Origin: Eledone cirrhosa
Taxonomy: Eukaryota
Direction of reading: 5' to 3'
Assembly (NCBI GenBank): GCA_964016885.1
Contig: CAXHJY010001022.1
Coordinates: 1 to 64,000 of the forward strand
DNA: 64,000 nucleotides
Every line of letters starts with the position of its first letter. The first letter of the stretch is position 1. Both the position numbers and the translations under genes were made by a program. Positions 21,449 to 63,689 of the stretch are shown here, piece by piece. Under the pieces are notes generated by a model. It saw only the letters and a list, made by a program, of their open reading frames with translations, ran no database searches and was not told the DNA's origin.

Positions 21449-21539
21449 AAATTAAATGAAGGGTGTCATGTCGGCGACATGCGCCATATCCACTGTAGAA
21501 TATGCTCCAAAGATTCCAATGAATAGATCCGAGCATTTT

Positions 21540-22281: not shown

Positions 22282-22990
22282 GGTTAGAAGGTTCACCACT
22301 GGATAGAATTGGTCATTCCGTATGGTCAATCTTGATGTAATAATATGGAGAGTACTCAACGTAAAGCAGCTCAACCGTCTTCGTTTGTATAGTTGGTGAT
22401 GTGAGAACGGAGTTAATTATTATAATAAAATAACAGGAGGCTGGACTTGTGTACATCCTTGAAAGGTTTATTATACTATGAACATTTCAATGACCGGGTT
22501 CCGTATGAATCCGGTGATATCATCAGGTATTCGAAATATAATAGATGAATGTAACTGATAAAATCCATGGGACTGAAAATCATAGACCCGAGGACGACCG
22601 ACCATCTAGCATCTTCCACTTCATCCGGTCGCCCTCAAGTGCTGGCTATTCGGTCTACTTAAGGCTATCTGGTGAGGGGGAAAAAGCATATAATGTGCTG
22701 TCAACCTCCCGGTCAAAGAGAAAACAGAGACAGAGAGAAAGAAGAAGAAAAGTCAGCGTTAATGTCATGCTACAATCAGGCTAGGAATTGCCGCGAAATA
22801 TGTTATTCTAAAGAACCTATATCTTAACAGAGGTATATATAATAACAGAGGTATATATAGTGGGTGTCTGCATGGTATAATGTGTGAACAGAACATTGGA
22901 ACATAACATTTTTGTTTAGATTCATAGGATGAAATTTAAAAAGAATTAAATTAAAGACTGTAATTATAAATTTAAAAAAGTTAGAAAATT
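22278..22990 (-). mobile_element. PLE pLTR remnant
   Basis: Contains an HHR; 3' end abuts (TA)n; upstream boundary approximate. Confidence 0.55.
22473..22530 (-). ncRNA. Type I hammerhead ribozyme
   Basis: atac CTGATGA tatc accgg attc atacg gaac ccggt catt GAAA tgttca TA gtat. Confidence 0.75.
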
Positions 22991-23322: not shown

Positions 23323-23574
23323 ATGTATGCAAGAAATAATATAGACATTTATAATTATATACACATATGCACATACACGAAAAAAAAAATATATATATAA
23401 CCAAATGTTAAACAAGATTCATTGATTATTCAATGCATATAGTTTTACAATAGATTAAAAACACTCAACAGTTAGTTTTCTGGAGTTATTAATACTATTC
23501 AAAATATTAATAAATGCCAAGACTGTAATTGAACAATCAGCACAGTTGAGGTATGTCATACATCAATGTATGTA

Positions 23575-23635
23575 TTTTATCTGATGAGGACATACTGAAA
23601 AAAAACACAGTGCCTCCGAAATATATATAATAAAA
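23575..23635 (+). ncRNA. Type I hammerhead ribozyme (related to family G pLTR)
   Basis: ttttat CTGATGA gga cat actg...cagt gcc tcc GAAA tatata TA ataaaa; flanks resemble 43800-43955. Confidence 0.8.
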
Positions 23636-23684
23636 CATATATTTTGATTTGATTACGTGAATGTCTCTATTTATTAATATTTTG

Positions 23685-23776
<92 letters not shown>

Positions 23777-24071
23777 GTATGTATATATGTATATATGTAA
23801 TAGAATGAAACGAAATTTCATTTCTCATTCTTAGTACGGCACTTACTTAAATGTAAGTATGTATGTATACGTACATACATATATGTATACAGACGTACAG
23901 TAGTCTGTATGTATATATATACATGCTACTGTACGTCTGTATACATATATGTATGTACGTATACATACTTACATTTAAGTAAGTGCCGTACTAAGAGTGA
24001 GAAATGAAATTTCGTTTCATTCTATTCCATTTATCGTCTTCGGTGCGCCTGGTCGACTGATCTCACTCGAT

Positions 24072-24120
24072 ATGCAAATTAGGCTGCTCAGCCGTTAATT
24101 TTCATAAGGAGAGTATATAC
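24072..24120 (+). promoter_or_regulatory. Octamer + PSE-like box + TATA-like (repeated per unit)
   Basis: ATGCAAAT 24072-24079; TAATTTTCATA 24096-24106; gtatatac ~24113-24120. Confidence 0.5.
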
Positions 24121-24153
24121 TTTCGGACGTTCAACCATCTGGCAGAAAGGTAT

Positions 24154-24196
24154 ACGGTGCTGACGATAGCTAATAAGCTTGAAACTAGTACATCGT
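24154..24196 (+). ncRNA. Type I hammerhead (S1 unit 1, intact)
   Basis: acggtg CTGACGA t agct aata agct t GAAA ctag TA catcgt. Confidence 0.88.
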
Positions 24197-25037
24197 TCCT
24201 GTGTCAGTGTTGAACAAAAAGGTGACGTGGTTGCCTAAATACTGTACGGCGTTATTCAGGCTGCTTGTTTGTTTACAAACGAACAAACCGAGCATTATAA
24301 TAAATGTTCGGTAGACTGATACGTGCATATATATATGTGTACCTGTATGTATATATATACATGCTACTGTACGTCTGTATACATATATGTATGTACGTAT
24401 ACATACATACTTACATTTAAGTAAGTGCCGTACTAAGAGTGAGAATTGAAATTTAGTTTTATTCTATTCCATTCATCGTTTTAGGTGCGCCTGGCCGACT
24501 GAACTCACTCGATATGCAAATTAGGCTGCTCAGCCGTTAATTGTCATAAGGAAAGTATATACTTTCGGACGTTCAACCATCTGGCAGAAAGGTATACGGT
24601 GCTGGCGATAGCTAATAAGCTTGAATATTGAACATCGTTCCTGTGTCAGTGTTGAACAAAAAGGTGACGTGGTTGACTAAACACTATACGGCGTAATTAA
24701 GGCTGTTTGTTTCTTTACAAACGAACAAACCGAGCATTATAATAAAAGTTTCGTAAACTGATACGTGCATATATATATGTGTGCTTGTATGTATATATAT
24801 ACATGCTACTGAACGTCTGTATACATATATGTATGTACGTATACATACATACTTACATTTAAGTAAGTGCCGTAATAAGAGTGAGAAATGAAATTTCGTT
24901 TCATTCTATTCCATTCATCGTTTTAGGTGCGCCTGGCCAGCTGAACTCACTCGATATGCAAATTAGGCTGCTGAGCCGTTAATTTTCATAAGGAAAGTAT
25001 ATACTTTCGGAAGTTCAACCATCTGGCAGAAATGTAT

Positions 25038-25080
25038 ACGGTGCTGACGATAGCTAATAAGCTTGAAACTAGTACATCGT
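25038..25080 (+). ncRNA. Type I hammerhead (S1 unit 3, intact)
   Basis: Same as unit 1; units 2, 4 and 5 (24596, 25480, 26122) carry core or stem mutations. Confidence 0.85.
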
Positions 25081-25631
25081 TCCTGTGTCAGTGTTGAACA
25101 AAAAGGTGACGTAGTTGCCTAAACACTGTACGGCGTAATTCAGGCTGTTTGTTTGTTTACAAACGAACAAACCGAGCAATATAATAAAATTTCGGTAAAC
25201 TGATACGTGCATATATATATGTGTGCCTGTATGTATATATATACATGCTACTGTACGTCTGTATACATATATGTATGTACGTATACATACATACTTACAT
25301 TTAAGTAAGTGCCGTACTAAGAGTGAGAAATGAAATTTCGTTTCATTCTATTCCATTTATCGTTTTCGGTGCGCCTGGCCGACTGAACTCACTCGATATA
25401 CAAATTAGGCTGCTCAGCCGTTAATTTTCATCAGGAAAGTATATACTTTCGGACGTTTAACCATCTGGCAGAAAGGTATAAGTTGCTGACGATAGCTAAT
25501 AAGCTTAAAACTAGTACATCGTTCCTGTGTCAGTGTTGAACAAAAAGGTGACGTGGTTGACTAAACACTGTACGGCGTAATTCAGGCTGTTTGTTTACAA
25601 ACGAACAAACCGAGCATTATAATAAATGTTC

Positions 25632-25820
25632 AAGGGCGGTGGATTGGCAGTATCGGTAGAGGGTCGGACGCCATGCTTTGACGCATAGAGTTACGGCCCT
25701 TGCCATTCTGAGTTCAAATCCCGCCGAGGTTAACTTTGCCTTTCATCCTTACGGGGTCGATAAAATAAAGTACCAGTAATACACTGGGTAATTTCTGGCC
25801 TTGTGCCAAACGTAGAAACA
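25632..25820 (+). mobile_element. Full-length tRNA-derived SINE with 16 bp TSD
   Basis: A box tggcagtatcgg; B box gagttcaaatcc; TSD attataataaatgttc at 25616-25631 and 25821-25836; central domain resembles the Meta-type/octopus SINE core (from memory). Confidence 0.92.
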
Positions 25821-26405
25821 ATTATAATAAATGTTCGGTAAACTGATACGTGCATATATATATGTGTGCCTGTATGTATATATATACATGCTACTGTACG
25901 TTTGTATACATATATGTATGTACGTATACATACATACTTACATTTAAGTAAGTGCCGTAATAAGAGTGAGAAATGAAATTTCGTTTCATTCTATTCCATT
26001 TATCGTTTCGGTGCATCTGGCCGACTGAACTCACTCGATATGCAAATTAGGCTGCTCAGCCGTTAATTTTCATAAGGAGAGTATATACTTTCGGACGTTC
26101 AACCATCTGGCAGAAAGGTATATGCTGCTGACGATAGCTAATAAGCTTGAAACTAATACATCGTTCCTGTGTCAGTGTTGAACAAAAAGGTGTCGTGGTT
26201 GCCTAAACACTGTACGGCGTAATTCAGGCTGTTTGTTTGTTTACAAACGAACAAACCGGGCATTATAATAAATGTTCGGTAAACTGATACGTGCATATAT
26301 ATATGTGTGCCTGTATGTATATATATACATGCTACTGTACATCTGTATACATATGTGTATTTACGTATACATACATACTTACATTTATGTATATATATTT
26401 ATGTA

Positions 26406-26451
<46 letters not shown>

Positions 26452-26517
26452 TATATGTATATATGTATATATATATGTATATATGTATATATATATATAT
26501 GTATATATATATGTTTA

Positions 26518-26565
<48 letters not shown>

Positions 26566-26597
26566 CATATATACATATACACATATATATATATATA

Positions 26598-28846
26598 AAG
26601 ATTAAAATACTGGAGCGTGTTGGAGTTAAACACCCTCTTCGTATTATAGAAATGACAGTAAAAGGTATAGCTCAATGTAATTAAACAGAGCCGACGAATT
26701 ATGAAAGTAAAACAAAAGAGCCTTCAATACATCAAAAGTCTTTATTAGCCAACAATGTTACGTCCTATTAAGGACTCATCAGGGCAATTAAAACAACAAG
26801 AAGTATTATCGGCCAATACAAGCCGGAAACTCCGAAGAACATGGAGTGTACATACACTAAAGTATTGCAAGATTATGTGTAAAAGTATATAATAAAAAAA
26901 TATATAATAAAAATCACTAAGGAGGTGTATAACATTTAGAACCATATTACAAATATAGTCCAAAGCAAAAAAAAACTAGAGCTAAACAAAGGTGGATATA
27001 TAGAGCGGGACTTATATATAATACTATATAATATAATATAATATACTTGTAACAATATTAAAATTACAATAAAAATTAAAAGGTACAATATACATATGTA
27101 TATATGTACGCACACGTACGCACATATACACATACATCAATACACATATCCATCTTCAACATCACAAATTAAACCTTATTAAGAGTTTAAATATAAATAA
27201 GCATGATAGGAATAAAAATAATAATAATAATAATAATACGTATATCTAATATACATGAGGTAATAATGTGATATAATTATAAGTAGCACATATAATATAT
27301 AATATAATAAACTATACAATTATATACTATATAATATAATATAATAGATAATCACCGGTTAATTTACACAAACAATATAGATGTCACAATAATACTATAA
27401 AAATAATATAATAACATATATAATATATAATATATAATGGCATGCAAGTTAACATATCAATTCATATAGAGTTACAGAGTAGGTGAGAAAAAATATAAAT
27501 TGTACAATACCCAAAATTATGATGGTACAAAAATATAAACATCTTACATGATATATAAAGTTTAACATATCATAATGGTACTTATAATCAACGGTAAGTA
27601 ATAAGGATCGATAGTACAATAACAAATACAATATAAAATAATTAACATAATATAATATATAAATACTTATAATTACAAGGTTGGTAAACAGACATATATG
27701 TGGATGAGTGAGTAAGGGCCAGACAGTAAATAGAATGCACAGTAGTATTAATAAATAAATAAATAAATAAATAAATATAATCAACCGGAAATTAAAAAAA
27801 CAAAAACAAAAGTATATACTTAGGTCTCACATGCAGTTAAGTAAAAACTACGGAAACAACCCCGTTAAATGACTCGAAAACCCTATTTTATAAATTAATA
27901 TTAAAAATATTTAAAATATCTAATAAGGCAATACAATATTAGCATTGGTTTAAGTAATCAAAATTTATAGACGTTAATATTTCACTACAAATATATATAT
28001 AAAGGAATGAAATTTTCTACTATCATTTACATAACGATATCTAAAAAACTGACTTAAGCAGAATTATGGTAGGCTAATAGGGACAAAAAAAAGAAGTGTA
28101 TGGAGGATGCAAAGAAGCATAAAATCGTAGTCAATGTACTATATTAAATAATAGAAAGGAGCGTAAAAGAGGGGGGGGTTAAATATAATCATAATCTATT
28201 TGAAGGGGTTGACAATAACATTATGTGCGCATGGGGGAGGGAGGAGGGTGAAGGGGGGGGGGGGGGGGGGGAGGGCTATCCAAAGAAGAATCCAAATAAA
28301 ATAAAATAAAATGAAATGAAATAAAATAAAATAATGTAAAATATATAATCAGATATATACTCGTAAGGTGTTAATAGTGAAAATTTGATGCGTAAGAAGA
28401 TAGATATGGTATAGTAGCCAAAAGATTATGAGAGCTAGAATAAAGAGTTGTCAAAAACCAATGATAATAATGATGATAATGATGGTGGTAAACAAAAAAG
28501 AACCTAAACTAAAAAATAAGTAATGGAATATATCAGCTAATGGATACAATTTATACTACTAGAACCTATAGGTTTATAATAAAAGTAAGAATTAGAAATA
28601 GCGTGGGGGCAAGGAGAGAATATCTCAGACTGTCTATTAAGTAAGGATTCGCTAGAGAAAATTATAGAGTGTGTCTCGAGGATACAGAGATTACAAAATT
28701 TAGTATGTGTAGAAAGGTTATTAGAGCGTGCTACTAAACGCCAATTAAGGCTATATGGTATATTAGCCCCCTTAAGTTTAAGAATTCTACTTCAGTAGCA
28801 CACTATATCTGGGATATTAAGGGGGCTAATATACCATATAGCCTTA
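26598..28846 (-). mobile_element. 5'-truncated copy of PLE family E (EN C-terminus, 3'UTR, HHR at 26744-26788 with GAAA>GTAA) and short 5' inversion
   Basis: Reverse complement of ~48390-50490; 28795-28846 is an inverted piece. Confidence 0.9.
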
Positions 28847-28953
28847 AACCGTACGTTCAAATTTCGGTGAAATTGCTACACTTATAGATGAAGGTCCGGC
28901 GGAACCATCGGTCAAATAAATTTTCAAATAAGTTCTTGTTTTCGATTATGTCA

Positions 28954-37001: not shown

Positions 37002-37676
37002 AAGAGATATACTTGATATATCTCATATGAAATGATACAGCCAATTTTCCACACAATACAATTAGTTAGCACCCCGAACGTTTAATTATGAGTATACTCA
37101 GGTATTACCTAATGTTTGTTGAGTGGGTTGTAATTTGGCCGGAGTATCGCTATTAGCTTTCTCCGATTATATATTTATATATTTACTCTTGGAGCAACAG
37201 ATATGAACTTTCCCGATATAAGGTATGACACTCTTTGTTTATTTTTTATATGAATATTGAGTGTTTGTTCTTGTATCTCATTCTGTTATTTTGCCGGAGA
37301 AAATATCTATGTATGTCATCAAGCGATGCGCACATATGGTTTTCTTTTCATATCCAATTGAGTTATAACACGAGGCTTGAATTCTTTTCAGAATTTATTG
37401 ACCTGCGCATGTATTGTTTTTTGGCGGTAATCTGCTTCCTCCTATTTTCGAGACAGTGTGAGATTTTCTTTAGAACTGCTGAACTAACAACCTAGCAGCT
37501 CCCTCAAGCAGTGATGGTGATTATCGCTAAATATTGATGTTGATTTGGTTATCAATATTAATATTATTGGGCACCCACTGAAGAATTATAAGAGCTCACT
37601 TGAATAAGTATTTGTTGATCTTATACAAGCTTTTACATAAATTGGTATAATTTCACTTAATTTGTAGAAATCTTAT

Positions 37677-38030
37677 CATCATTCATCATTCATCGACTAC
37701 TGTCGAGATGATGGATCTTACTCTCATGCCCCAGAATTCCCTGTTCCCCATCGCCGCCCCCAGGTCCTGTCTACTGATTCCCGTATCCCTAGAGATAACG
37801 TCAGGAATGACAGCTTCCTACTCCTAATCAAGCTGGAGTCACGCTACCCAGCAAAATACTTGATCGACACCGGCATTGCTGACGACATCGCATTGTTCAG
37901 TCGGTCACTGGAAAATGCTGAGAGTCTTTTGAAGTCATTAGAGCAAGCGTCCAACTGTGTTGGACTGTACCTCAACGAATCCAAGACTGAGTATGTGAAC
38001 AGATGCGCAAACAGCCCAAACTACCCCATC
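37677..38030. mobile_element. RTE-like LINE fragment with 5' inversion and 11 bp TSD
   Basis: TSD agaaatcttat (37666-37676, 38031-38041); + strand ADDIALFS...VGLYLNESKTEY; - strand C-terminus DTGISRQDLGAAMGNREFW with (gatgaat)n tail. Confidence 0.85.
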
Positions 38031-38231
38031 AGAAATCTTATAGTGAAACGAGTCGTCTGGGAAGAGATATACTGGATATATCTCATATGAAATGATACAG
38101 CCAATTTTCCACACAATACAATTAGTTAGCACCCTGAACGTTTAATTAGAAATATACTCAGGTATTTCCTAATGTTTGTTGAGTGAGTTAGAATTTGGCG
38201 AGAGTATCGTTATTAGCTTTCTCCGCTTATG

Positions 38232-38358
<127 letters not shown>

Positions 38359-39334
38359 AAATACATACATATAAAGAAGTAGAGAGAAAGAGAAAATGAG
38401 GCCAAGAAGAGAACATGGGTGTATGTATTGAGTCCTGTCGAGGCATATATATGTTACTTATTCATTTCACTTGGAATACTTTCTCTTTCACTACGAAAAA
38501 TTAATTAACTATCTCGAATAACTGTTCATTCTTGATTTATACGGGTGATTTGTCGATATAGTACTCATTGGCTTAGCCATAATCAATTGCTTTGAAAAGC
38601 TTACCTACGATATACGCCTATATTAAGTGCGAATTTTGCCGGAAAGTTAACGAAATCTATAAATAAGGTATTATCGATAAACATCGCGTTATAGGGATAT
38701 TTTAGCGGAAGCCTTACTGTTACTATTCCTTAGACGATTATCAATATGAATTGATTGACCGACAATATTCGTGAAATACGTACTAATACGCTAGTAGCTT
38801 ATGATATATTTGACACAAGAATTTTGAAGACGGTAAATGAACCAGGAGCGGCACTATCGGAGCGCTCTCACTTGGCTGATAAAAGAGTGCTTCTAAAATT
38901 CATATATATACATATATATATGAATTTTAGAAGCACTCTTTTATTCACCACATTGTAGTCTCTATCAACCAAGTGAGAGCGCTCCAATAGTGCCGCTCCT
39001 GGTCTTTTAACCGTCTTCAAAATGACTAACGCACACTATGTCAGAACAACATGACCCCTCATTAATTACAGTCGACAAACTTTTGCTTTGTATGTAAATG
39101 AGTTTCGTCAGCCGATGTCCATGCCATAAATCCTATGACCGTTTAACATATTTTCTTCTTAGCATCTAAGGAGGTAGCCTCTCTAATAGCGGTTAAAAAT
39201 CAGTAACGGTCCCTTCAGAGTGCTCTCGCATTGTTGGTGTTGAATTAATCACTGCTTCTAAACTTCTCATAGAGATGACTATAAAATGTTTATTTACATG
39301 ACCACTTCTGGTATGATTCAACATACAATCCCAG

Positions 39335-39383
<49 letters not shown>

Positions 39384-39434
39384 AAGTAATTGAGTTAATT
39401 ACTATAATTTTCTTATCTTACGTCTTATATATAC

Positions 39435-39473
<39 letters not shown>

Positions 39474-39482
<9 letters not shown>

Positions 39483-40043
39483 CGTGAGATAAGAAAATTA
39501 TAGTAATTAACTCAATTACTTAAATTTCACTCCAACTAATTAGTTTCTCAGAGGAGATATACATAGTCTCCAAATGGAGACCATGGAGAATCCTTTCTTC
39601 ATCAGGGAGTCATTCTCAGCTAAGATTCCTGGCGATGCGTGGACACAGGGATCGTATACAAAAATAATTCAGTGGATGGAAAAAAGCTAGCGCGGACTAA
39701 ATTCGAAGCCATTGAAAATTTCACTGCCTTCCTGGTCAGTGGCAAATTCAAAAGAATCAATCACGTGACATTGAGGTTATTCAGTGAGGAGTGGGTGTTA
39801 AACAAACAGTAGCTAAATTGAATACTATGAACCATAGTAGTAATTTAGGCAAATTTGTGCACAACAAAATAATTTGGAGATAATTATAAAGAATTAGTAT
39901 ATCTACCAACATATTTATACAGATGTATACTTACGCTAGCAAATATATAAGTTTTGTCTTAGTAACTTTGTGGTTCCATACAAAGAAATGTAGAACAATT
40001 ATATAAAAGACGTAAAATAAGGAAATTATAGTAATTAACTCAC
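39474..40043 (-). mobile_element. Non-coding ~530 bp HHR unit with ~40 bp terminal redundancy
   Basis: ~39474-39514 recurs at ~40003-40043; HHR inside; TA flanks. Confidence 0.65.
39529..39610 (-). ncRNA. Type I hammerhead with extended domain II
   Basis: actcc CTGATGA aga...catggtctcca tt tggagactatg...tct ga GAAA ctaattag TT ggagt. Confidence 0.78.
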
Positions 40044-43952: not shown

Positions 43953-43987
<35 letters not shown>

Positions 43988-44028
43988 GAAAATAAAACAA
44001 AGAAGCCTTCAATACATCAAAAGTCTTT

Positions 44029-44073
44029 ATTAGCCAACAATGTTTCGTCCTATTAAGGACTCATCAGGGCAAT
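44029..44073 (-). ncRNA. Type I hammerhead (family E, inverted copy)
   Basis: Reverse complement of 45706-45750. Confidence 0.85.
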
Positions 44074-45705
44074 CAAAACCACAAGAAGTACTATCGGCCA
44101 ATACAAGCCGAAAACTCCGAAGAATATGGAGTGTACATACACTAAAGTATTGGAAGATTATGGGTAAAAATATATAATAAAAATCACTAAGGAGGTGGAT
44201 AACATTTTGAACCATATTACAAATATAGTCCAAAGCAAAAAAACTAAAGGTGGTTATATAGAGCAGGAATTATAGTACTATATATAATACAATATAATAT
44301 AATATAATATACTTGTAACAATATTAAAATTAAAATTAAAAGGCACAATATACATATGTATATATGTACGCACAAGTACGCACGTATACATATACATCAA
44401 TACACATTTCCATCATTAACAGCACAAATTAAACCTTATTAAGAGTTTAAATATAAATAAGCATAATAGGAATAAAAATAATAATAATACATATATCTAA
44501 TATACAGTATAACATGAAGTAATGAAATGATTAAAAGTAAAACATATAATATATAATAAACTATATAATTATATAATATATAATATAATATAATAGATAA
44601 TCTCCGATTAATTTACACAAACAATATAGATGTCACAATAATACTATAATAATAATATAATAACATATAATATATAATGGCATGTAAGTTAACAAATCAA
44701 TTCATGTAGAGTTACAGAGTAGAGCAGAAAAAAATATATATTGTACAATACCCAAAATTATGATGGTACAAAAATATAAACATCTTACATGATATATAAA
44801 ATTTAACATATCATAATGGTACATAAAATCATCGGTAAGTAATAAGGATCAATAGTACAATAACAACTTCAATATGAAATAAAATAATGAACATAATATA
44901 ATATATAATTACTTATAATTAAAAGGTTGGTAAACAGACACATATGTGAATGAGTGAATAAGGGCCAGACAGAAAATACTATGCACAGTAGTATTAATAA
45001 ATAAATAAATAAAATCAAACGGAAATTAAAAAACAAAAACAAAAGTATTTACTTAGGTCTCACATGCAGTTAAGTAAAAACTTAGGAAAAAACCCAGATA
45101 AATGACTAGAAAACCCTATTTGATAAATTAATATTGAAAATATTTAATATACCTAATAAGGCAATACAATATTAGCTATGGTTTAAGTAATAAAAATTCC
45201 TAAACATTAATATTTCACTATAAATATATATATAAAGGAATGAAATATTCTACTATCATTTACATGTTATACTGTATATTAGATATACGTATTATTATTA
45301 TTTTTATTCCTATTATGCTTATTTATATTTAAACTCTTAATAAGGTTTAATTTGTGCTGTTAATGATGGAAATGTGTATTGATGTATATGTATATGTGCG
45401 TACGTGTGCGTACATATATACATATGTATATTGTGCCTTTTAATTTTAATTTTAATATTGTTACAAATATATTATATTATATTATATTGTATTATATATA
45501 GTACTATAATTCCCGCTCTATATAACCACCTTTAGTTTTTTTGCTTTGGACTATATTTGTAATATGGTTCAAAATGTTATCCACCTCCTTAGTGATTTTT
45601 ATTATATATTTTTACCCATAATCTTCCAATACTTTAGTGTGTGTACACTCCATATTCTTCGGAGTTTTCGGCTTGTATTGGCTGATAGTACTTCTTGTGG
45701 TTTTG

Positions 45706-45750
45706 ATTGCCCTGATGAGTCCTTAATAGGACGAAACATTGTTGGCTAAT
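45706..45750 (+). ncRNA. Minimal type I hammerhead (family E)
   Basis: attgcc CTGATGA gtcc ttaata ggac GAAA c att g TT ggc taat. Confidence 0.9.
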
Positions 45751-45967
45751 AAAGACTTTTGATATATTGAAGGCTTCTTTGTTTTATTTTCATAATTCTT
45801 CGGCTCTGTTTAATTACATTGAGCTATACCTTTTACTGTCATTTCTATAATACGAAGAGGGTGTTTAACTCCAACACGCTCCAGTATTTTAATCCTTGTC
45901 ACTGCTCCCGATTGGTTGAGCTTCCGCCTATATACTGGTGTTTTTGCCTTTATATATATCTGACAGT

Positions 45968-48629
45968 ATGCTAACAAAGAGTTACCTGCCTTTATCTCTG
46001 AAGAATATTCCCACCCCCTCTAAGAATACTTACGAAAAACCATTGATTGCTAGTGGTAACTCCTTCGTAAAAAGGATTAGATGGCGTGCTTTCCACTATG
46101 ATATTAATAGGAATAGGAAGGACCCCAGGAATAGAACAAATTTTAATAACTATGGCTTCAAAACTTATATGAGCCCACCACATAATGTTCTATTAGATAA
46201 TTGTGAAAGTGACTTACTCTCTCTTGTCAAAAATATTAAGTATAGGCCAAATAATAGACATAGAAATTATAATAAATTTGATAACTTCCAGTCTAGACTT
46301 AAAAATATTGTTAAGGGTTTTAGTGCGAATAAGTCTATTATTGTCCCGGCGGATAAGACTAAGAATCTATACTCTATGGATTACAGTGCTTACCGTGACT
46401 TTCTTTATAAGGAGCTGCATAGAAATTATAAAAAGACTACGCTAGATAATTTGAACCATATCAATTGTGAGGGTCTTAAAATAGTCTCGGACCTCGGGCT
46501 TGATAAGTACACCCAGCCATATTACCCTAGAGAACCGAGATTCACTATTAAGGATCATAAGGTAGACTTCATTAGTAACCCCTCTGTTAGACTCATCTGT
46601 CCTTCTAAGTCCGATATAGCCATAATCAGTAAAAAAATCCTTGACCTTATTATACCAGATGTTAGGGATAAAGTTAATTTTAACCTATGGGGGAACACTA
46701 AGGAAGTTATACATTGGTTCTCTGGGATTAATAAACTTGAATCTAATAAGTTTATCCAGTTCGATATTGATGTCTACTACACATCGATTTCACCCATCCT
46801 CCTCAATAAAGCCTTAATGTTGGCCATGACAGTGTCCAGCCTTACACGATCACAGGTAGATATTATACTAGCAGCCCGTAGAACTATTATTAATTTTGAG
46901 GACACATCTTGGACCCGTAAAAACACGCCCAACAATTTCTACGTTACAATGGGTTCGAGTGATTCGGGCCAGGTAACTGATCTTGTTGGGTTGTTCCTCC
47001 TAAATGAACTATATGTTACCTTTCCGCACTTTAATGGCGGACTATATCGTGATGATGCATTGTTCGTAATTAACTCTAGCACCAACAATGTAGAACATAA
47101 TAAGAAGAAGCTTTATAAGTTTATTTAAAAGCTATAACCTTTCGATCACGATAGATAGAAACGATAGAGCGGTCAACTTTTTAGATGTGACTTTGGACTT
47201 GGTCACTAATAGTTTTAAACCCTTCTATAAGCCTAATGAAATACTTTCTTATGTTAGTCCGAATTCTAACCACCCCAAATCTATCATAAGCTCTATAATT
47301 AAGAGTGTATCTAATAGGATTTCCACACTCTCTAAGGACGTAGGAATATTTAATGAACATGCGGAGTACTATAATAATTCCCTAGCTAATTCCGGTTACT
47401 CTAGTAAAATACATAATAATAATAGTAACCTTAGAAATTCTCCGCTTACTTATAATAATAATAACATAATATCCCATAACATGGCCATGAATGGGAGTAG
47501 GAAGCATAATAATCGTAGAAATTACATAGGTGTATCTGAACCCATCCATAAGTTAACCCACCGGACTCGTAATAGGGAATCAAGTCGAACCCTCTGAGCG
47601 CTCACTCATTGGTGATGATTTTGCTAGATCTAATTCTAATAATGTTGTTTCTACTGATCCTATTATTGGCCCTAATCCTTTTGATAGGATTCCAGACAGC
47701 AGCAGATCTACTAGAGGTAGAAACATTAAGAGATATAATGGAATTTTGGCTGATTCTAATAATGCGGTTTTAACTAATCCTTGTAATAACCCTATCTTAA
47801 TAATGGGATATTAGATAATGGTAGAGTCGGAAAGGATAAAAATAGAAGGAGACTAAATACTTATTTTAACCCGCCATATAATCAGGAAGTATTAACTAAT
47901 ATCCCTAGGTCTTTCTTTTCTATCTTAGAGAAACATTTCACCCCTTCTCATAAATACCATAGTATTTTTAATAAAAATGTTATTAAACTTTCATTCTCTA
48001 CCACCCCTAATATTAGTTCTCATTTAGCTAGCACTAACAATAGGAAAATTAGGGATGGATACTCCTCTCTACATACTACTAGTCTGAACAGATCTGGAAA
48101 TGCCTTACCACCAGAGCAGACCTTATCTAATAGTAATCCTACGTTTAATGCATCACTACTTCAGCCAATCAATAGCACCCGGAAGTGTAACTGTAGAGTG
48201 AGTGCTAACTGCCCTTTAAACGGTAACTGCCTCTCTAAGAACATCGTCTATGCTTGCGTAGTTATAACTAATTCCTCTAATAGAACTTATATAGGCTCTA
48301 CATCTAACACTAGGTTTAATTCTCATATCTCTAATTTCAAACATGTTAAGTTTAAGAATTCTATTTCTTTAGCACCCTATATCTGGGATCTTAAGGGGGC
48401 TAATATACCATATAGCCTTAATTGGCGTTTAGATGCACGCTCTAATAACCTTTCTACACATACTAAATTGTGTAATCTCTGTATCCTCGAGACACACTCT
48501 ATAATGTTCTCTAGTGAATCCTTACTTAATAGAAAGTCTGAGATATTCTCTTCTTGCCCCCACGCTATTTCTAATTCTTACTTATATTATAAAACTAAAG
48601 GTTCTAGTAGTGTAAATTGTATCCATTAG
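45968..48629 (+). pseudogene. PLE RT-GIY-YIG pol with several frameshifts
   Basis: SLKNIPTP, ADKT, KDHK, FIQFDI, GLYRDDAL, NFLDVTLDL, SNHP, YFNPPY, CNCR...CPLNGNC, TYIGST, CNLC, LNRKSE, CPH. Confidence 0.95.
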
Positions 48630-50299
48630 CTGATATATTCCATTACTTATTTTTTTTAGTTTAGGTTCTTTTTGTTTACCACCATTATTATCATCATTAT
48701 TATCATTGGTTTTTGACAACTTTTTATTCTAGCTCTCATAATCTTTTGGCTACTATACCATATCTATCTTCTTACACATTAAATTTTCACTATTAACACC
48801 TTATGAGTATATATCTGATTATATATTTGATATTATTTTATTTTATTTCATTTTATTTTATTTTATTTGGATTCTTCTTTGGGTAACCCCTCTCCTCCCC
48901 CCCCCCATGCACACATAAACTTATTGCCAACCCCTTCAGATATATTATGATTATATTTAATCTCCCCCTCTTTTATGCTCCTTTCTATTATATAATACAG
49001 TATATTGATTATGATTTTAAGCTCCTTTGTATCCTGGATACATTTCTTTTTTTCTGTCCCTATTAGCCTACCATAATTCTGCTTAAGTCAGTTTTTTAGA
49101 TATCGTTATGTAAATGATAGTAGAATATTTCATTCCTTTATATATATATTTATAGTGAAATATTAATGTTTAGGAATTTTTATTACTTAAACCATAGCTA
49201 ATATTGTATTGCCTTATTAGGTATATTAAATATTTTCAATATTAATTTATCAAATAGGGTTTTCTAGTCATTTATCTGGGGTTTTTCCTAAGTTTTTACT
49301 TAACTGCATGTGAGACCTAAGTAAATACTTTTGTTTTTGTTTTTTAATTTCCGGTTGATTTTATTTATTTATTTATTAATACTACTGTGCATAGTATTTT
49401 CTGTCTGGCCCTTATTCACTCATTCACATATGTGTCTGTTTACCAACCTTGTAATTATAAGTAATTATATATTATATTATGTTCATTATTTTATTTTATA
49501 TTGAAGTTGTTATTGTACTATTGATCCTTATTACTTACCGATGATTTTATGTACCATTATGATATGTTAAATTTTATATATCATGTAAGATGTTTATATT
49601 TTTGTACCATCATAATTTTGGGTATTGTACAATATATATTTTTTTCTGCTCTACTCTGTAACTCTACATGAATTGATTTGTTAACTTACATGCCATTATA
49701 TATTATATGTTATTATATTATTATTATAGTATTATTGTGACATCTATATTGTTTGTGTAAATTAATCGGAGATTATCTATTATATTATATTATATATTAT
49801 ATAATTATATAGTTTATTATATATTATATGTTTTACTTTTAATCATTTCATTACTTCATGTTATACTGTATATTAGATATATGTATTATTATTATTTTTA
49901 TTCCTATTATGCTTATTTATATTTAAACTCTTAATAAGGTTTAATTTGTGCTGGTAATGATGGAAATGTGTATTGATGTATATGTATACGTGCGTACTTG
50001 TGCGTACATATATACATATGTATATTGTGCCTTTTAATTTTAATTTTAATATTGTTACAAGTATATTATATTATATTATATTGTATTATATATAGTACTA
50101 TAATTCCTGCTCTATATAACCACCTTTAGTTTTTTTGCTTTGGACTATATTTGTAATATGGTTCAAAATGTTATCCACCTCCTTAGTGATTTTTATTATA
50201 TATTTTTACCCATAATCTTCCAATACTTTAGTGTATGTACACTCCATATTCTTCGGAGTTTTCGGCTTGTATTGGCCGATAGTACTTCTTGTGGTTTTG

Positions 50300-50344
50300 A
50301 TTGCCCTGATGAGTCCTTAATAGGACGAAACATTGTTGGCTAAT
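50300..50344 (+). ncRNA. Minimal type I hammerhead (family E, 3' copy)
   Basis: Identical to 45706-45750. Confidence 0.9.
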
Positions 50345-50487
50345 AAAGACTTTTGATGTATTGAAGGCTTCTTTGTTTTATTTTCATAATTCTTCGGCTC
50401 TGTTTAATTACATTGAGCTATACCTTTTACTGTCATTTTTATAAAACGAAGAGGGTGTTTAACTCCAACACGCTCCAGTATTTTAAT

Positions 50488-50526
<39 letters not shown>

Positions 50527-50531
<5 letters not shown>

Positions 50532-53500
50532 CAAATAGAAACTATATTTATAAAACCATATTTATTTCATTATACATATTTCAAGGATACCAAGTTAAAC
50601 CATGGTATGCCTTCATCAGACAAAATACAATATATACCAGTTTTATAAATAAACATTGACGTACCCTTTCAAAATGTGACCGTTACTTTTGGAAGACATC
50701 AGGATAGTGGTTTGTTTATTTTAGTAAGTTGTAGTGTTAAGGATAAGTAAAATGACGGAGAGCGAGAGAGAAACGTGGAGAAAAGAAAGGGAGAGATAAA
50801 TAAAGAAAAAGAGGAAAGAAAAAAAAGAAAAAAGAAAAAAAGAAAAAAGAAAAAAGAAAAAAAAAGAAAACAGAGGAAAACAACAGAGATATATCAAACC
50901 ACCAGACAGAGAGAAAAAACTCAAGAGAGAGAATATAGAGATAGAGAGAGGGGGAGAGAACGAAAACCTTAAGTCATGTCATATTAAGTTGAGTCAACAA
51001 TTGAGATGAAATGAATAAATAAAATTAGAAATATTAATATTCATGAATGGAATATACATATATAATATGAGAAATTAATCATTGTTTAATTATGATTAGA
51101 TATTTAGTTTAAAATTTGAGATCAATATATTAAAAATTGGAATTTAAACATCACAAAATATATATATTGCTAGAGAAATTATCTATCGTATAGCACGTAC
51201 ATATAGGCAAAGATACATAAATATATTTATACACACACACTCATAAAATACACATTATATCTACTCCCGCATATAATATATATATACAAAGCATAAGTGA
51301 TTGTTTTATTACTGCTATACATTCCTTGTGTTATTAAATAAAAATTCTTAGTATATATATAAATATATAGGATTAACTTTCATGCATTTATGGCTGTTAA
51401 ATTATGCATATATGCAATCAAAACTGCATGGGTAAGCATGTACATGTACATGTACACAATTCTTAGCTATACATATATAAATATGTGTGTGCATCTTCAC
51501 CCAATTGGTAGACACGCGTCACTCATGCATATATACAGATAGACATATAATCATAAAAAAGCATATAACACATGTATATGTATGTTAATACACATATATA
51601 GATACATAGTCGTATAGAGATAAGTATACATCAATATATTACATAGTACAATTGAGTATATAAAATACAAAATGATTATATTTTGGAAATATAATTATAT
51701 CAATATAACTTAAAATTCTACAAATATCAACATATTAAAATATTTTAAAATATTATAGAATATTTTAAGTTAAAATAATATGTTTAATAGATTTAGTGTA
51801 GAAATTTATCTTACGTATATTTTAATGAAGATATTGAAAAGATAAACTTTTGAAAATTATGAGAAGCTATAAGAATAAAAACCAACCTAATAAAGGTTAC
51901 ACAAATTTGTTAGGTGGTTTATATGAAGGGCTTTACCTATCACTTCCCATTTTAAAGTGTATGGTATGTTACTTGATTTTAATGAGTGTATGTATGTCGA
52001 TAGTGAGGTTACGTTGGTAAGTTTAGGGTTTCTGATCGAATGAAGGTGTGAATTATATCTGGACTTAAAGCTATTCGATGTTGAGCCTATATATACTTTC
52101 GAGATGTGATTAGCGGTTACAGTACCGGAGTAGATTTTGTCTTTATTTAGGCAGTTCTTATTTAATGGGGATATCTTGTTAGGCCTACAATTACAATTGT
52201 TTTGGTAACTAGTATACTGGTTAAGCGGGTATGCATTTGAGTTGTTGTTTCTGTTTCTACTTCTAGTATTATGATTATCGTGAGTATTATTATTATTGGT
52301 ATTATTAGTGTGACTTGCTGTATGGTCTTGTACTGTGTTATTGTTCAGGTTATTTATATGCTAAACATTATTACTTTGGTGTAATTTGAAGTACTTTTTA
52401 ATCTTTCTCTTGTTGGTGCTGGCTATATGTCTGCTATGTTAGGTGTGGTGGAGTAGGATAATTGTGTTTTTGTTAAATAGGTTGTTGTATTTATGGTTAG
52501 TGGGAAGTTTTTCTCTAGAGTAGAGAGGAAAGTTATGTTTGTCGATACATTTAAGTTGAACGGGGGGTTAAACAACGTGCTACTTCTTCTATTCTTCTTA
52601 TCGGTGTTATTCATACTACTGTTTAGTGTGGTGTTAGGTTCCTTCTTATCAATATTTTCCTTTCTGTGGTGTTTCTTATGATTATTTTCTGTGGTGTGAT
52701 TTAACTTTTTTATGGTGACTTTTATATAGGAGTCAGGATTTTCAAAACGATGATCATATTTACTTTTATTCATGGCAATGTTGTGTGAAATTATATTAGG
52801 TTATCTATGGGTGGTTGACGATTTAGGTTTAAATTTAATTTTAACTCTATGCCCAGAACGGGCTAAGGCTTCATTATAGTATTGGGAGGTACTATTAAAT
52901 GTATTCTCGTTGTAAGAAAGGCTAGAGATTCTATTAGATACCCCTTTAATGATTGAGGTCAGTACATGTTTAAAGTGGGTAGAGTTGGTATTAACATAGA
53001 ACAGTTTTTGATTAGATTTATGATAAGATGTGTATTGTTTAGAGTCTAATTAGTGAGTGACGTCCAGGAAGCTAACATTGTTGGTGTTTTTATCTAAAGT
53101 GATACCTAAGTTATAGTTTTGAAATATTTTATGTAATTGTTTTATAGTTCTTTCTATATTGAACTTTTTATACTCTAAGAAAAACGGTGCGTCGTCTCGG
53201 TAGAGGCCACCGTTGAGGTAAGGTAGGTTCTTGTGTATTTCATTTAAGAGAAATAGACCGACATATCGGTTACCTGTGCCGAGTCACGAGATCCCATGGT
53301 GATATCGAAGTTGTTGGGTGTATTCTTGCGGGTCCATAGTTGGTGTTCAAATTTAATTATTGTTTTCCTGGCCGCAAGGATTATATCTACCTGGAATCTA
53401 GTGAGTTCACTATTGTTCATGGCCATTATTAATGGTTTATTTAGGAGGATAGGTGAATTAGAGGTTTAGTAGAAGTGTATATCAAATTGGATGAATTTCT

Positions 53501-56570: not shown

Positions 56571-57537
56571 TTTCTCCCCATCAACGAACTCATTATTAAT
56601 ACATATTAACTCTTTATTCGCATATATTATCAATTCCTTCAATATACAAACTTTAACTCCACATTATTTTTCTCAAATCCTTCTACACACAAACCTTAAT
56701 AATTTTTCTCTTCGTTAATTTTGAAATTGCCACAATATCTTATCAACATACATTTCTTTTTTTTGACGTTAGAATATTCATCCACAATTATTATTTTTTC
56801 TCTCTATCTTCATACATAAATTCCCTTCGTTAATTTTCAAATTCCTTTAATTTATACATTATCTTCCAACGGTTCCCAACCTCTCTATGTAAAACTATAT
56901 ATCTTTTTCTCAGTTATAAAAACTATCTCTTTCCCTCTATCACCCATCTCTCCCTCTCCACCTTCACTCTCATCTCCTCCCCCTTTTTTCATCCTTTCCA
57001 CCCCCCCTCCCTAAATAAAATATTTTTTCCTCGCACATATCCTCCCTTCGTTAATTTTCAAAATTTTTTTTTTTAAATTTTTAATTGATACATTATCTTC
57101 CAACGGTTTTCAACCTCTCTATGTAAAACAATATATCTCCTCTCAGTTATAAAAACTATCTCTTTCTCTCTATCACCCATCTCTCCCTCTCATCTCCTTC
57201 CCTTTTTCATCCTTTCCACCCCCCCTCTCTAAATAAAATATTTTTCACAATATCACACATCAATCTAAAACCACTTTTCATATGTTGATTTAAAACTGCA
57301 CTATCCACAAGTGTTTTTTAGCCTTCATATCATGTTCTCTTGTTTTATCTGATGAAAACACAAATATTATTGCATGATGATGTTTGTTTTTGAAATGCGC
57401 ATAATAAAATACATGGAACTCCTTTAACCATCTTTTGAACTTATATTATGTATACTCCAGTCCTACAAACTGTAGAGTGCTTCTTATCCGATATCTGCAT
57501 TGCTTTATTGTACTACAATAAAACTCACCTCCTACAT
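56571..57537 (+). mobile_element. PLE family D pLTR with internal ~220 bp duplication
   Basis: ~56823-57025 repeats at ~57044-57246; 3' part matches 1095-1421. Confidence 0.75.
57343..57409 (+). ncRNA. Type I hammerhead (family D)
   Basis: ttttat CTGATGA aaaca...tgttttt GAAA tgcgca TA ataaaa. Confidence 0.82.
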
Positions 57538-60338
<2,801 letters not shown>

Positions 60339-60567
60339 TTAAACAATTAAGTTAAAAATGTACATCTACATATGCATACTGAAATACTAGTGTGTATATG
60401 AATACAAACACGTATACATATGTAGGTGTACCAAGTCTTTCACTGGTCGCTTTACAGTGAGCGGCCCAGCTATTCTGTATGTAAACACACAGACAAACCG
60501 GTTTTTAGAGTCACACTGGTTTTTCGGGGGAACACCTTCCCCCTATTCTCCAGAAAGCCAGACAAGG

Positions 60568-60612
60568 AATATTGACCTAGTTTCGTTGTTGTTACAACTC
60601 ATCAGCAATGTT
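60568..60612 (-). ncRNA. Type I hammerhead (S2, inverted)
   Basis: Reverse complement of the S2 HHR. Confidence 0.75.
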
Positions 60613-60691
60613 TACCTATCTACCGGCCTTTCTGGAGAATTGTAAAAGCACATATCGTTATATGCTTTTTCTATGAAAATTAGTAGTGGGC

Positions 60692-60747
<56 letters not shown>

Positions 60748-61035
60748 AAATAACGAAACGAAATTAAATTTCGTTTCGTTTGTAACTCACTTTTGTATGA
60801 CTGACGCTTAAACAATTAAGTTAAAAATGTACATCTACATATGCATACTGAAATACTAGTGTGTATATGAATACACACACGTATACATATGTAGGTGTAC
60901 CAAGTCTTTCACTGGTCGCTTTACAGTGAGCGGCCCAGCTATTCTGTATGTAAACACACGGACAAACCGGTTTTTAGAGTCACACTGGTTTTTCGGGGGA
61001 CACCTTCCCCCTATTCACCAGAAAGCCAGACAAGG

Positions 61036-61080
61036 AATATTGAACTAGTTTCGTTGTTGTTACAACTCATCAGCAATATT
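61036..61080 (-). ncRNA. Type I hammerhead (S2, inverted)
   Basis: Reverse complement of the S2 HHR. Confidence 0.85.
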
Positions 61081-61403
61081 TACCTATCTACCGGCCTTTC
61101 TGGAGAATTGTAAAAGCACATATCGTTATATGCTTTTTCTATGAAAATTAGTAGTGGGCAGACTAATTTGCATAGAGTGTGAGTACGCACCGGTTCAGCG
61201 GAGACGATAAAAAACAAATAACATAATAATGTGTGTATTCATATACACACTAGTATTTCAGTATGCATATGTAGATGTACATTTTTAACTTAATTGTTTA
61301 AGCGTCAGTCATACAAAAGTGAGTTACAAACGAAACGAAATTTAATTTCGTTTCGTTATTTGTTTTTTATCGTCTCCGCTGAACCGGTGCGTACTCACAC
61401 TCT

Positions 61404-61450
61404 ATGCAAATTAGTCTGCCCACTACTAATTTTCATAGAAAAAGCATATA
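61404..61450 (+). promoter_or_regulatory. Octamer + PSE-like box (repeated per S2 unit)
   Basis: ATGCAAAT 61404-61411; TAATTTTCATA 61427-61437; aaagcatata. Confidence 0.5.
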
Positions 61451-61496
61451 ACGATATGTACTTTTACAATTCTCCAGAAAGGCCGGTAGATAGGTA

Positions 61497-61541
61497 AATA
61501 TTGCTGATGAGTTGTAACAACAACGAAACTAGGTCAATATT
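61497..61541 (+). ncRNA. Type I hammerhead (S2, ctaggtc variant)
   Basis: aatattg CTGATGA gttgt aaca acaac GAAA ctaggt caatatt. Confidence 0.8.
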
Positions 61542-61965
61542 CCTTGTCTGGCTTTCTGGAGAATAGGGGGAAGGTGTTCCCCCGAAAAACCAGTGTGACT
61601 CTAAAAACCGGTTTGTCTGTGTGTTTACATACAGAATAGCTGGGCCGCTCACTGTAAAGCGACCAGTGAAAGACTTGGTACACCTACATATGTATACGTG
61701 TGTGTATTCATATACACACTAGTATTTCAGTATGCATATGTAGATGTACATTTTTAACTTAATTGTTTAAGCGTCAGTCATACAAAAGTGAGTTACAAAC
61801 GAAACGAAATTTAATTTCGTTTCGTTATTTGTTTTTTATCGTCTCCGCTGAACCGGTGCGTACTCACATTCTATGCAAATTAGTCTGCCCACTACTAATT
61901 TTCATAGAAAAAGCATATAACGATGTGTGCTTTTACAATTCTCCAGAAAGGCCGGTAGATAGGTA

Positions 61966-62010
61966 AATATTGCTGATGAGTTGTAACAACAACGAAACTA
62001 GTTCAATATT
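61966..62010 (+). ncRNA. Type I hammerhead (S2)
   Basis: aatattg CTGATGA gttgt aaca acaac GAAA ctag TT caatatt. Confidence 0.88.
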
Positions 62011-62434
62011 CCTTGTCTGGCTTTCTGGTGAATAGGGGGAAGGTGTTCCCCCGAAAAACCAGTGTGACTCTAAAAACCGGTTTGTCTGTGTGTTTACATA
62101 CAGAATAGCTGGGCCGCTCACTGTAAAGCGACCAGTGAAAGACTTGGTACACCTACATATGTATACGTGTGTGTATTCATATACACACTAGTATTTCAGT
62201 ATGCATATGTAGATGTACATTTTTAACTTAATTGTTTAAGCGTCAGTCATACAAAAGTGAGTTACAAACGAAACGAAATTTAATTTCGTTTCGTTATTTG
62301 TTTTTTATCGTCTCCGCTGAACCGGTGCATACTCACATTCTATTCAAATTAGTCTGCCCACTACTAATTTTCATAGAAAAAGCATATAACGATATGTGCT
62401 TTTACAATTCTCCAGAAAGGCCGGTAGATAGGTA

Positions 62435-62479
62435 AATATTGCTGATGAGTTGTAACAACAACGAAACTAGTTCAATATT
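62435..62479 (+). ncRNA. Type I hammerhead (S2)
   Basis: Same motif as 61966-62010. Confidence 0.88.
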
Positions 62480-62903
62480 CCTTGTCTGGCTTTCTGGAGA
62501 ATAGGGCTAAGGTGTTCCCCCGAAAAAACAGTGTGACTCTAAAAACCGGTTTGTCTGTGTGTTTACATACAGAATAGCTGGGCCGCTCACTGTAAAGCGA
62601 CCAGTGAAAGACTTGGTACACCTACATATGTATACGTGTGTGTATTCATATACACACTAGTATTTCAGTATGCATATGTAGATGTACATTTTTAACTTAA
62701 TTGTTTAAGCGTCAGTCATACAAAAGTGAGTTACAAACGAAACGAAATTTAATTTCGTTTCGTTATTTGTTTTTTATCGTCTCCGCTGAACCGGTGCGTA
62801 CTCACACTCTATGCAAATTAGTCTGCCCACTACTAATTTTCATAGAAAAAGCATATAACGATATGTGCTTTTACAATTCTCCAGAAAGGCCGGTAGATAG
62901 GTA

Positions 62904-62948
62904 AATATTGCTGATGAGTTGTAACAACAACGAAACTAGTTCAATATT
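62904..62948 (+). ncRNA. Type I hammerhead (S2)
   Basis: Same motif as 61966-62010. Confidence 0.88.
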
Positions 62949-63372
62949 CCTTGTCTGGCTTTCTGGAGAATAGGGGGAAGGTGTTCCCCCGAAAAACCAA
63001 TGTGACTCTAAAAACCGGTTTGTCTGTGTGTTTACATACAGAATAGCTGGGCCGCTCACTGTAAAGCGACCAGTGAAAGACTTGGTACACCTACATATGT
63101 ATACGTGTGTGTATTCATATACACACTAGTATTTCAGTATGCATATGTAGATGTACATTTTTAACTTAATTGTTTAAGCGTCAGTCATACAAAAGTGAGT
63201 TACAAACGAAACGAAATTTAATTTCGTTTCGTTATTTGTTTTTTATCGTCTCCGCTGAACCGGTGCGTACTCACACTCTATGCAAATTAGTCTGCCCACT
63301 ACTGATTTTCATAGAAAAAGCATATAACGATATGTGCTTTTACAATTCTCCAGAAAGGCCGGTAGATAGGTA

Positions 63373-63417
63373 AATATTGCTGATGAGTTGTAACAACAAC
63401 GAAACTAGTTCAATATT
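63373..63417 (+). ncRNA. Type I hammerhead (S2)
   Basis: Same motif as 61966-62010. Confidence 0.88.
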
Positions 63418-63634
63418 CCTTGTCTGGCTTTCTGGAGAATAGGGGGAAGGTGTTCCCCCGAAAAACCAGTGTGACTCTAAAAACCGGTTTGTCTGTGTGT
63501 TTACATACAGAATAGCTGGGCCGCTCACTGTAAAGCGACCAGTGAAAGACTTGGTACACCTACATATGTATACGTGTGTGTATTCATATACACACTAGTA
63601 TTTCAGTATGCATATGTAGATGTACATTTTTAAC

Positions 63635-63689
<55 letters not shown>

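Follow-up and report, generated by a model that had tools for sequence, protein, structure and literature searches.

An ageing 442-bp retrozyme array between TA tracts of Eledone cirrhosa, probably copied by a Hydra-clade PLE

We analysed a stretch of 64,000 nucleotides from Eledone cirrhosa, which we refer to as the window. The subject of this report is S1, a tandem array with a period of 442 bp as reported by TRF, 5.1 units and a unit GC of 0.38 (Table 1). The window also holds a smaller insertion of the same family, which we call the 9-kb copy, and an array of a second family, S2. S1 opens with an inverted 5' arm that differs from the unit consensus at 1 of its 104 positions, and it is flanked by TA tracts on both sides, inside which a TSD is unreadable. 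A first-pass annotation of this DNA had described a 442-bp tandem array with a type I hammerhead ribozyme (HHR) in every unit, an inverted 5' arm and TA flanks, and we found all of these in place. Units 0 to 4 contain no stop-to-stop frame of 100 aa or more, and the right end is overlapped by TA-repeat frames only. The open-frame scan of S1 found no RT plus GIY-YIG ORF, which is the mark of an autonomous PLE, and S1 is not an autonomous PLE. TA tracts of several kb also lie at 1–12128 and 57536–60338, and the window resembles a nested-insertion hotspot with no evident host gene.

Table 1. Features of the S1 array and of related elements in the window
Feature	Position	Strand	Remarks
Younger S1-family insertion (9-kb copy)	9097..9926	+	inverted arm 9097 to ~9283, ~1.3 sense units, long TA tracts on both sides
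Near-complete Hydra-motif PLE	17087..21378	-	RT and GIY-YIG frames; 3' end joined to (TA)n
3' end of unrelated PLE-type element	23506..23690	+	own HHR 23581-23629; runs into left TA tract
Left (TA)n/(TATG)n tract	23689..23799	.	probable target site
Inverted 5' arm of S1	23800..23903	-	unit positions +178 to +278 past HHR cut; 'long' terminus
Partial unit 0	23905..24027	+	starts at base of internal TA hairpin (+157)
Unit 1	24028..24469	+	HHR intact
Promoter-like block, unit 1	24071..24119	+	octamer 24072-24079 to TATA-like word 24113-24120; recurs in each unit
Type I HHR, unit 1	24154..24196	+	predicted cut after GUA at 24190
Unit 2	24470..24911	+	HHR 24596-24638, core and cut site broken
Unit 3	24912..25353	+	HHR 25038-25080, core intact, 1 distal helix I pair lost
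Unit 4	25354..25996	+	octamer mutated; HHR 25480-25522, AAAA core, cut-site strand intact; hosts SINE
SINE TSD, left copy, 16 bp	25616..25631	+	
SINE-like insert, 189 bp	25632..25820	+	dispersed repeat
SINE TSD, right copy	25821..25836	+	
Unit 5 (391 bp)	25997..26387	+	HHR 26122-26164, ACUAAU; 'short' terminus (+229) in predicted hairpin loop
Right (TA)n tract	26388..26597	.	followed by a Hydra-motif PLE family copy's 3' end, inverted
Degraded coding PLE, Hydra-clade motifs	43983..50491	+	TA, inverted 5' copy, TA
S2 array, 469-bp unit	60339..63640	+	homologous family; two inverted arms, TA flanks
Extra HHR-like motifs	1138-1192, 22477-22526, 23581-23629, 35004-35049		
Extra HHR-like motifs	39534-39605, 45712-45746, 50571-50619, 57349-57403		

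In the S1 HHR, helix I has 6 bp, helix II has 4 bp and is preceded by a U.U, and helix III is a single base pair capped by the palindrome ACUAGU. Cleavage is predicted at 24190, 24632, 25074, 25516 and 26158 in units 1 to 5. The core CUGACGA...GAAA-CUAG-UA is intact in units 1 and 3, although unit 3 has one broken distal pair in helix I. In unit 2 the core reads CUGGCGA, and helix III and the cut site together carry four changes; AAAA is found in unit 4 and ACUAAU in unit 5, both of which also have a weakened helix I. The first-pass reading of two intact and three mutated units, with these defects, is thus accurate. Units 4 and 5 are altered at the same two positions of helix I, to different bases (25481–25483, 26123–26125). 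The cut-site changes of unit 2 (24624–24634) produce, as judged by eye, an 11-base match to the S2 cut-site region on its reverse strand, which may be due to chance or to a template switch.

Our HHR descriptor matched two of the five S1 sites (units 1 and 3), the 9-kb copy and five S2 sites, and when the window was shuffled 30 times by dinucleotide blocks it gave 0 short-helix-III matches every time. Rfam gave 0 matches at gathering score in the window, hammerheads included. Rfam also gave 136 weak matches over the S1 array, which we discarded as noise because most were to generic models of microRNA hairpins and none was to a hammerhead family. When folded, helix I continues into further stems, with z of -2.5 for unit 1 and -1.0 to -1.2 for units 4 and 5. 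The combination of the U.U at the base of helix II with a 1-bp helix III predicts weak cleavage, and the 1-bp helix III means that a double-hammerhead form would be needed for cutting. From counts of helix pairing, S1 is predicted to be cleavable at units 1, 3 and 4, in unit 4 with the help of a partner's core, which would yield pieces of 884 and 442 nt, and not at unit 2. Two consecutive units with a complete HHR, the definition of an 'active' retrozyme in a 2026 preprint (bioRxiv 10.64898/2026.07.22.740005), occur in S2 and not in the S1 array; the same text reports that one of nine tested Xenopus retrozyme dimers cleaved. We also considered whether mutations are enriched in the S1 HHRs (11 substitutions in 215 cells vs 50 in 1940 elsewhere, P=0.047), and we dropped this as unsupported after counting clustered changes as events (6 vs 44, P=0.63).

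Each unit also has a promoter-like block, which on the strength of its motifs we treat as a candidate snRNA-type promoter only. The first-pass annotation had placed an octamer, a PSE-like box, a TATA-like word and an HHR in every unit. For the octamer this is correct in units 1, 2, 3 and 5, where it is exact, and incorrect in unit 4, which reads ATACAAAT; the 'PSE-like' box is putative. A promoter of the snRNA type would have an octamer and a PSE, and for Pol III a TATA box as well. A predicted hairpin is centred on the TATA-like word, and the conserved words of the block pair with one another in predicted hairpins, in S1 and S2 alike. On the sense strand each unit has a T run, from T4 in S1 to T6 in S2, and such runs would be expected to stop Pol III before the next HHR. 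The runs therefore argue against Pol III read-through and disfavour a Pol III type-3 reading, and we consider Pol II the more workable one. In having a block of this type S1 would be like newt satellite 2, for which an snRNA-type Pol II promoter is reported (PMC2220036, citing Coats 1994), and a compact H1 promoter has octamer, PSE and TATA inside 84 bp (PMC11340601). A 2020 review states that retrozymes seem to be without promoters and that no motif betrays the helper (PMC7761336).

The proposal that a SINE with a TSD had landed in unit 4 holds up for a SINE-like insert: the 16-bp TSD is perfect and three relatives of the insert, at 92–95%, lie elsewhere in the window. ARAGORN found no tRNA, and A and B boxes, judged by eye against their consensus, are putative. 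The SINE and the AT-microsatellite landscape appear octopus-like.

The 9-kb copy is 87% identical to the S1 array, and its HHR core and promoter-like block are intact, with one complete HHR predicted to cut at 9678. We consider this copy young because its own duplicated parts differ at only 2 of 166 and 1 of 187 positions, or about 1%. It has an 8-bp duplication at its inversion junction and sits in a TA repeat of about 5 kb. Compared with the S1 consensus, two spacers are changed at 20 of 124 positions, the promoter-like block at 0 of 49 (P=0.001) and the HHR region at 7 of 95 (P=0.06); the TA-rich stem region is likewise conserved, with 2 changes in 125. The presence of this dispersed, TA-flanked copy excludes the case that the first-pass annotation had set against its own reading, namely that the family occurs only in big homogenised arrays.

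S1 and S2 can be aligned over their whole length, with 280 of 484 aligned columns identical (58%) and a score of 125, while shuffled sequences gave a mean of -44 and a maximum of 4. They are colinear homologues, in agreement with the first-pass view that they belong to the same class. The predicted circular fold of S2 repeats the hairpin series of S1, and 22 of 116 predicted pairs are changed on both sides between the two families, including three of the four helix II pairs and three of the six proximal helix I pairs. This count is from a five-sequence alignment that represents three lineages, which is few, and it points to selection on the RNA structure.

We located the ends of the three insertions relative to the HHR cut. 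S1 ends at +229 on the right and at +278 on the inverted left side, the 9-kb copy at +226 and +214, and S2 at +230, +236 and about +299–305, where TA microhomology of a few bases limits the precision of the termini and the S2 ends are mapped approximately. Once placed on the S1/S2 alignment, the ends fall into two clusters, five short ends at a small hairpin and two long ends just past the hairpin that follows. All seven termini are near two homologous sites 50–70 nt apart and none is at the HHR cut, for which random placement gives a P of about 1e-5 to 5e-5, in a post hoc test with non-independent ends from three insertions in one 64-kb window. Three of the five short ends fall in the loop of a predicted hairpin common to both families, and the +214 end of the 9-kb copy is 12 nt off. 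The tails are 49–75 nt long in S1 and S2, the S1 left end being about 49 nt beyond the right end, and a long end is absent from the 9-kb copy. The starts of the S1 and S2 sense arrays are no more than one aligned column apart and lie where the internal hairpin has its base, and the sense part of the 9-kb copy starts elsewhere. In all three insertions there is an inverted, 5'-truncated copy beside a partial tandem. An inverted 5' copy and a tail of 30–40 bp are described as PLE features, and almost all Hydra-clade PLE families are described as inserting into (TA)n (PMC8557442).

PLE fragments crowd the window, and several carry an HHR of their own at 44–61 nt from a TA tract. Outside S1 and S2 there are at least eight more type I HHR-like motifs (Table 1), most of which have a TA tract no more than about 200 nt downstream, and these apparently belong to several PLE families. 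Counted from the cut of its own HHR, the degraded PLE at 43983–50491 has an inverted 5' copy that ends at +51 and a right terminus at +152; these termini are 101 nt apart, more than the published tail length. With its inverted arm, its tail and a neighbouring PLE of the same layout, S1 does have the PLE-like insertion architecture that had been proposed for it at first pass. The near-complete PLE at 17087–21378 has pLTRs that are 99% identical and contain an HHR, and we take it to exemplify the class of candidate helpers. Helix II of its HHR contains an 85-nt insert, and the RT and endonuclease parts of this PLE are in different frames. Small palindromes lie on or near TA tracts at 21375–21470, 28745–28847, 38821–39023 and 39379–39526.

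Of the motifs given for the Hydra clade in PMC8557442, RW[K/R] and DKT are present in two of the four RT-side PLE frames that we scanned in the window, and CxCx5C in four of the six EN-side frames. Pfam, run on seven frames, returned only GIY-YIG (below cut-off) and an unrelated RVT_1 fragment, with no match for the PLE RT frames. A protein search found 798 relatives, the best at 42% identity; among the 120 listed, 119 are unnamed and one is a 'hypothetical protein', so the clade call rests on the motifs. There is a weak RVT_1 match at 37668–38090, which is probably a LINE remnant. S1 shows no similarity to the PLE pseudo-LTRs in the window beyond weak TA/CA-rich low-complexity matches, and the helper is therefore inferred from architecture and target only. 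Since the TA flanks of S1 are common to the adjacent PLE ends, S1 perhaps neither made nor chose them.

We believe that S1 is likely a non-autonomous non-LTR retrozyme copied by a (TA)n-targeting Hydra-clade PLE via internal initiation. The array would be transcribed into a multimer, probably by Pol II from the internal octamer-containing promoter, and the S1 HHRs could cut the multimer into 442-nt monomers, which may be circularised. The RT/GIY-YIG protein of a Hydra-clade PLE would nick a (TA)n tract and copy either a circle or an uncut linear multimer, with reverse transcription starting inside the S1 RNA and away from the HHR-cut end. The two start sites, at +214 to +236 and about +278 to +305, would flank the hairpin pair. 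If synthesis were primed from both strands of the target, or if fold-back occurred at the internal TA hairpin, the outcome would be a sense tandem and a shorter inverted 5' arm, and the end of that arm would differ from the right end by the tail. After insertion, the S1 array would have gained substitutions, unit exchanges and the SINE. A reaction of this kind is reported for a Poseidon PLE (PMC11167929), in which reverse transcription starts internally at two adjacent stem-loop sites whose spacing gives the tail, AT-rich targets are preferred and both nicked strands are extended. An internal start on both strands of AT-rich DNA accounts for the S1 layout. HHR cleavage is reported as dispensable in that system: HHR mutants still inserted, and uncut RNA was the main substrate.

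Pairwise divergence between units is 4.4–7.2% in S1 vs 0.5–1.7% in S2, which supports the claim of the first-pass annotation that S1 is older than S2. It had also called S1 decaying, which is true of this array and not of the family, since internal divergence is just about 1% in the 9-kb copy, whose HHR core and promoter-like block are intact. Rolling-circle copying in its pure form lacks support, because the units have variants in common beyond chance. We observed six shared derived variants among the S1 units where an independent-decay model expects 1.8 (P=0.006), and the patterns of sharing conflict with one another (units 2+3, 2+4, 1+5). For S2 with its arms, there are three shared variants vs 0.13 expected (P=2e-4). 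S2 unit 1 (61533) and the outer inverted arm (near 60576) carry the same HHR-breaking change at the cut site, and the inner arm has a different variant in common with unit 2. A single circle copied five times and then decaying is thus insufficient, and the data call either for conversion after insertion or for a multimeric template that was heterogeneous or linear.

It is quite possible, if somewhat short of an even call, that one 442-nt circRNA was copied about five times, with units identical at insertion that later changed and underwent some conversion. Copies of more than a unit cross the cut site in all three insertions (for example, about 1.3 units in the 9-kb copy and 485 nt in the S2 inner arm), the circular monomers are predicted to fold stably (z of -4.2 and -5.4 for S1 and -10 for S2), and circRNAs are known for mussel, coral and axolotl retrozymes (PMC7229834). 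However, the shared variants exceed a star model, including the HHR-breaking change of S2 unit 1 and the outer arm, and rescue by conversion has to be added.

Alternatively, the PLE enzyme may have copied an uncut linear read-through multimer of an older array, so that differences and dead HHRs were partly inherited; we regard this as possible but rather doubtful. In that case the 5% divergence would overstate the age of the S1 insertion. Such a template would explain variants common to several units beyond expectation in both S1 and S2, and it agrees with the use of uncut RNA and the insertion of HHR mutants in the Poseidon system (PMC11167929). The arm and unit 0 also stay close to the consensus, departing from it over about 230 bp by a single substitution and a 4-bp deletion, but their divergence is not clearly under that of the matching region of the other units (11 changes in about 580 cells). 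The excess of HHR substitutions by base would fit as well, although it is gone when events are counted, and the S2 inner arm has just one of unit 2's three variants.

We think it unlikely that a short PLE-mediated insertion, like the 9-kb copy, grew to five units locally by unequal exchange in the manner of ordinary satellites. This route is proposed in bioRxiv 10.64898/2026.07.22.740005, and three of the six shared variants link the adjacent units 2 and 3, but the sharing is conflicting and none of the unit pairs stands out as much closer than the others.

It is very improbable that the inverted arms were made without a PLE, by a DNA-level element (a MITE or a Helitron-borne satellite) or by fold-back rearrangement at fragile TA tracts: the palindromes around TA tracts in the window and the internal TA palindrome at the S1 inversion centre would fit this, but the arms vary in length (104, 187, 358 and 485 bp) and lack the symmetry of fixed terminal inverted repeats, an asymmetry on which we rejected the MITE and Helitron readings, the outer ends avoid the part of the unit that is most like TA and coincide in families only 58% identical, and the compensatory changes suggest selection on RNA.

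From its sequence S1 fits the known class of non-LTR retrozymes, with a short unit, GC below 50%, a type I HHR, no coding capacity and dispersed copies; units of this class are reported as about 150–450 bp with GC <50% (PMC7229834; PMC4209133). Like S1, metazoan non-LTR retrozymes are described as non-coding tandems with a type I HHR that co-occur with PLEs and have dispersed copies from monomer to multimer (PMC7229834; bioRxiv 10.64898/2026.07.22.740005), and the preprint argues that retrozymes are non-autonomous PLE derivatives. The portions of these two texts that we used, supplements aside, do not describe the inverted 5' arms, tail termini and (TA)n targeting of S1, nor do they name a helper clade. 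The preprint reports pLTR homology for 24 of 57 Xenopus families, whereas S1 has none to the PLEs in the window. Among the matches listed in our literature search, no paper deals with tail or inverted-arm termini of retrozymes or with a cephalopod retrozyme family, though supplements of the main papers may differ; hammerhead matches are reported for giant squid (PMC6962438).

In the axolotl HHR_Amex1, helix III is 1 bp long and capped by a palindromic tetraloop, in HHR_Amex2 a U.U stands at the base of helix II, and both are reported to work better as dimers (PMC7229834). By description, the S1 HHR joins the two weak features. Hydra-clade PLEs have the (TA)n target, an HHR and a partial tandem with inverted 5' copy and tail in common with S1, which differs from them in lacking RT and endonuclease, in having no detectable pLTR similarity and in a tail longer than 30–40 bp (PMC8557442). 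The same paper describes Chlamys MRC1, which like S1 is a non-coding PLE parasite with multicopy head-to-tail insertions. The non-autonomous Chlamys elements are unlike S1 in being algal and in generally having a helper-like 3' end, and a canonical HHR is given as undetected in most Chlamys.

We conclude that the S1 array is ageing and represents a new family of an established class, the retrozymes, whose reliance on PLEs had already been proposed on grounds of co-occurrence and phylogeny. The value of S1 lies in its termini, which together with those of the 9-kb copy and S2 point to a specific helper and specific start sites. The locus adds a physical prediction of the copying clade, of start sites (about +226–236 and +278–305) and of a stop site, which in two of the three insertions is the base of the internal hairpin. 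Tentatively, and at barely less than an even call, we read the S1 array as the footprint of retrozyme mobilisation by a Hydra-clade PLE in its full form, with two hairpin-bounded starts, insertion into (TA)n, recognition of RNA structure and an snRNA-type promoter of its own. A non-coding RNA of 442–469 nt with mapped starts would be a compact substrate for the poorly understood PLE reaction, and with three insertions of unlike age the choice between a circular and a linear template becomes approachable from genomes alone.
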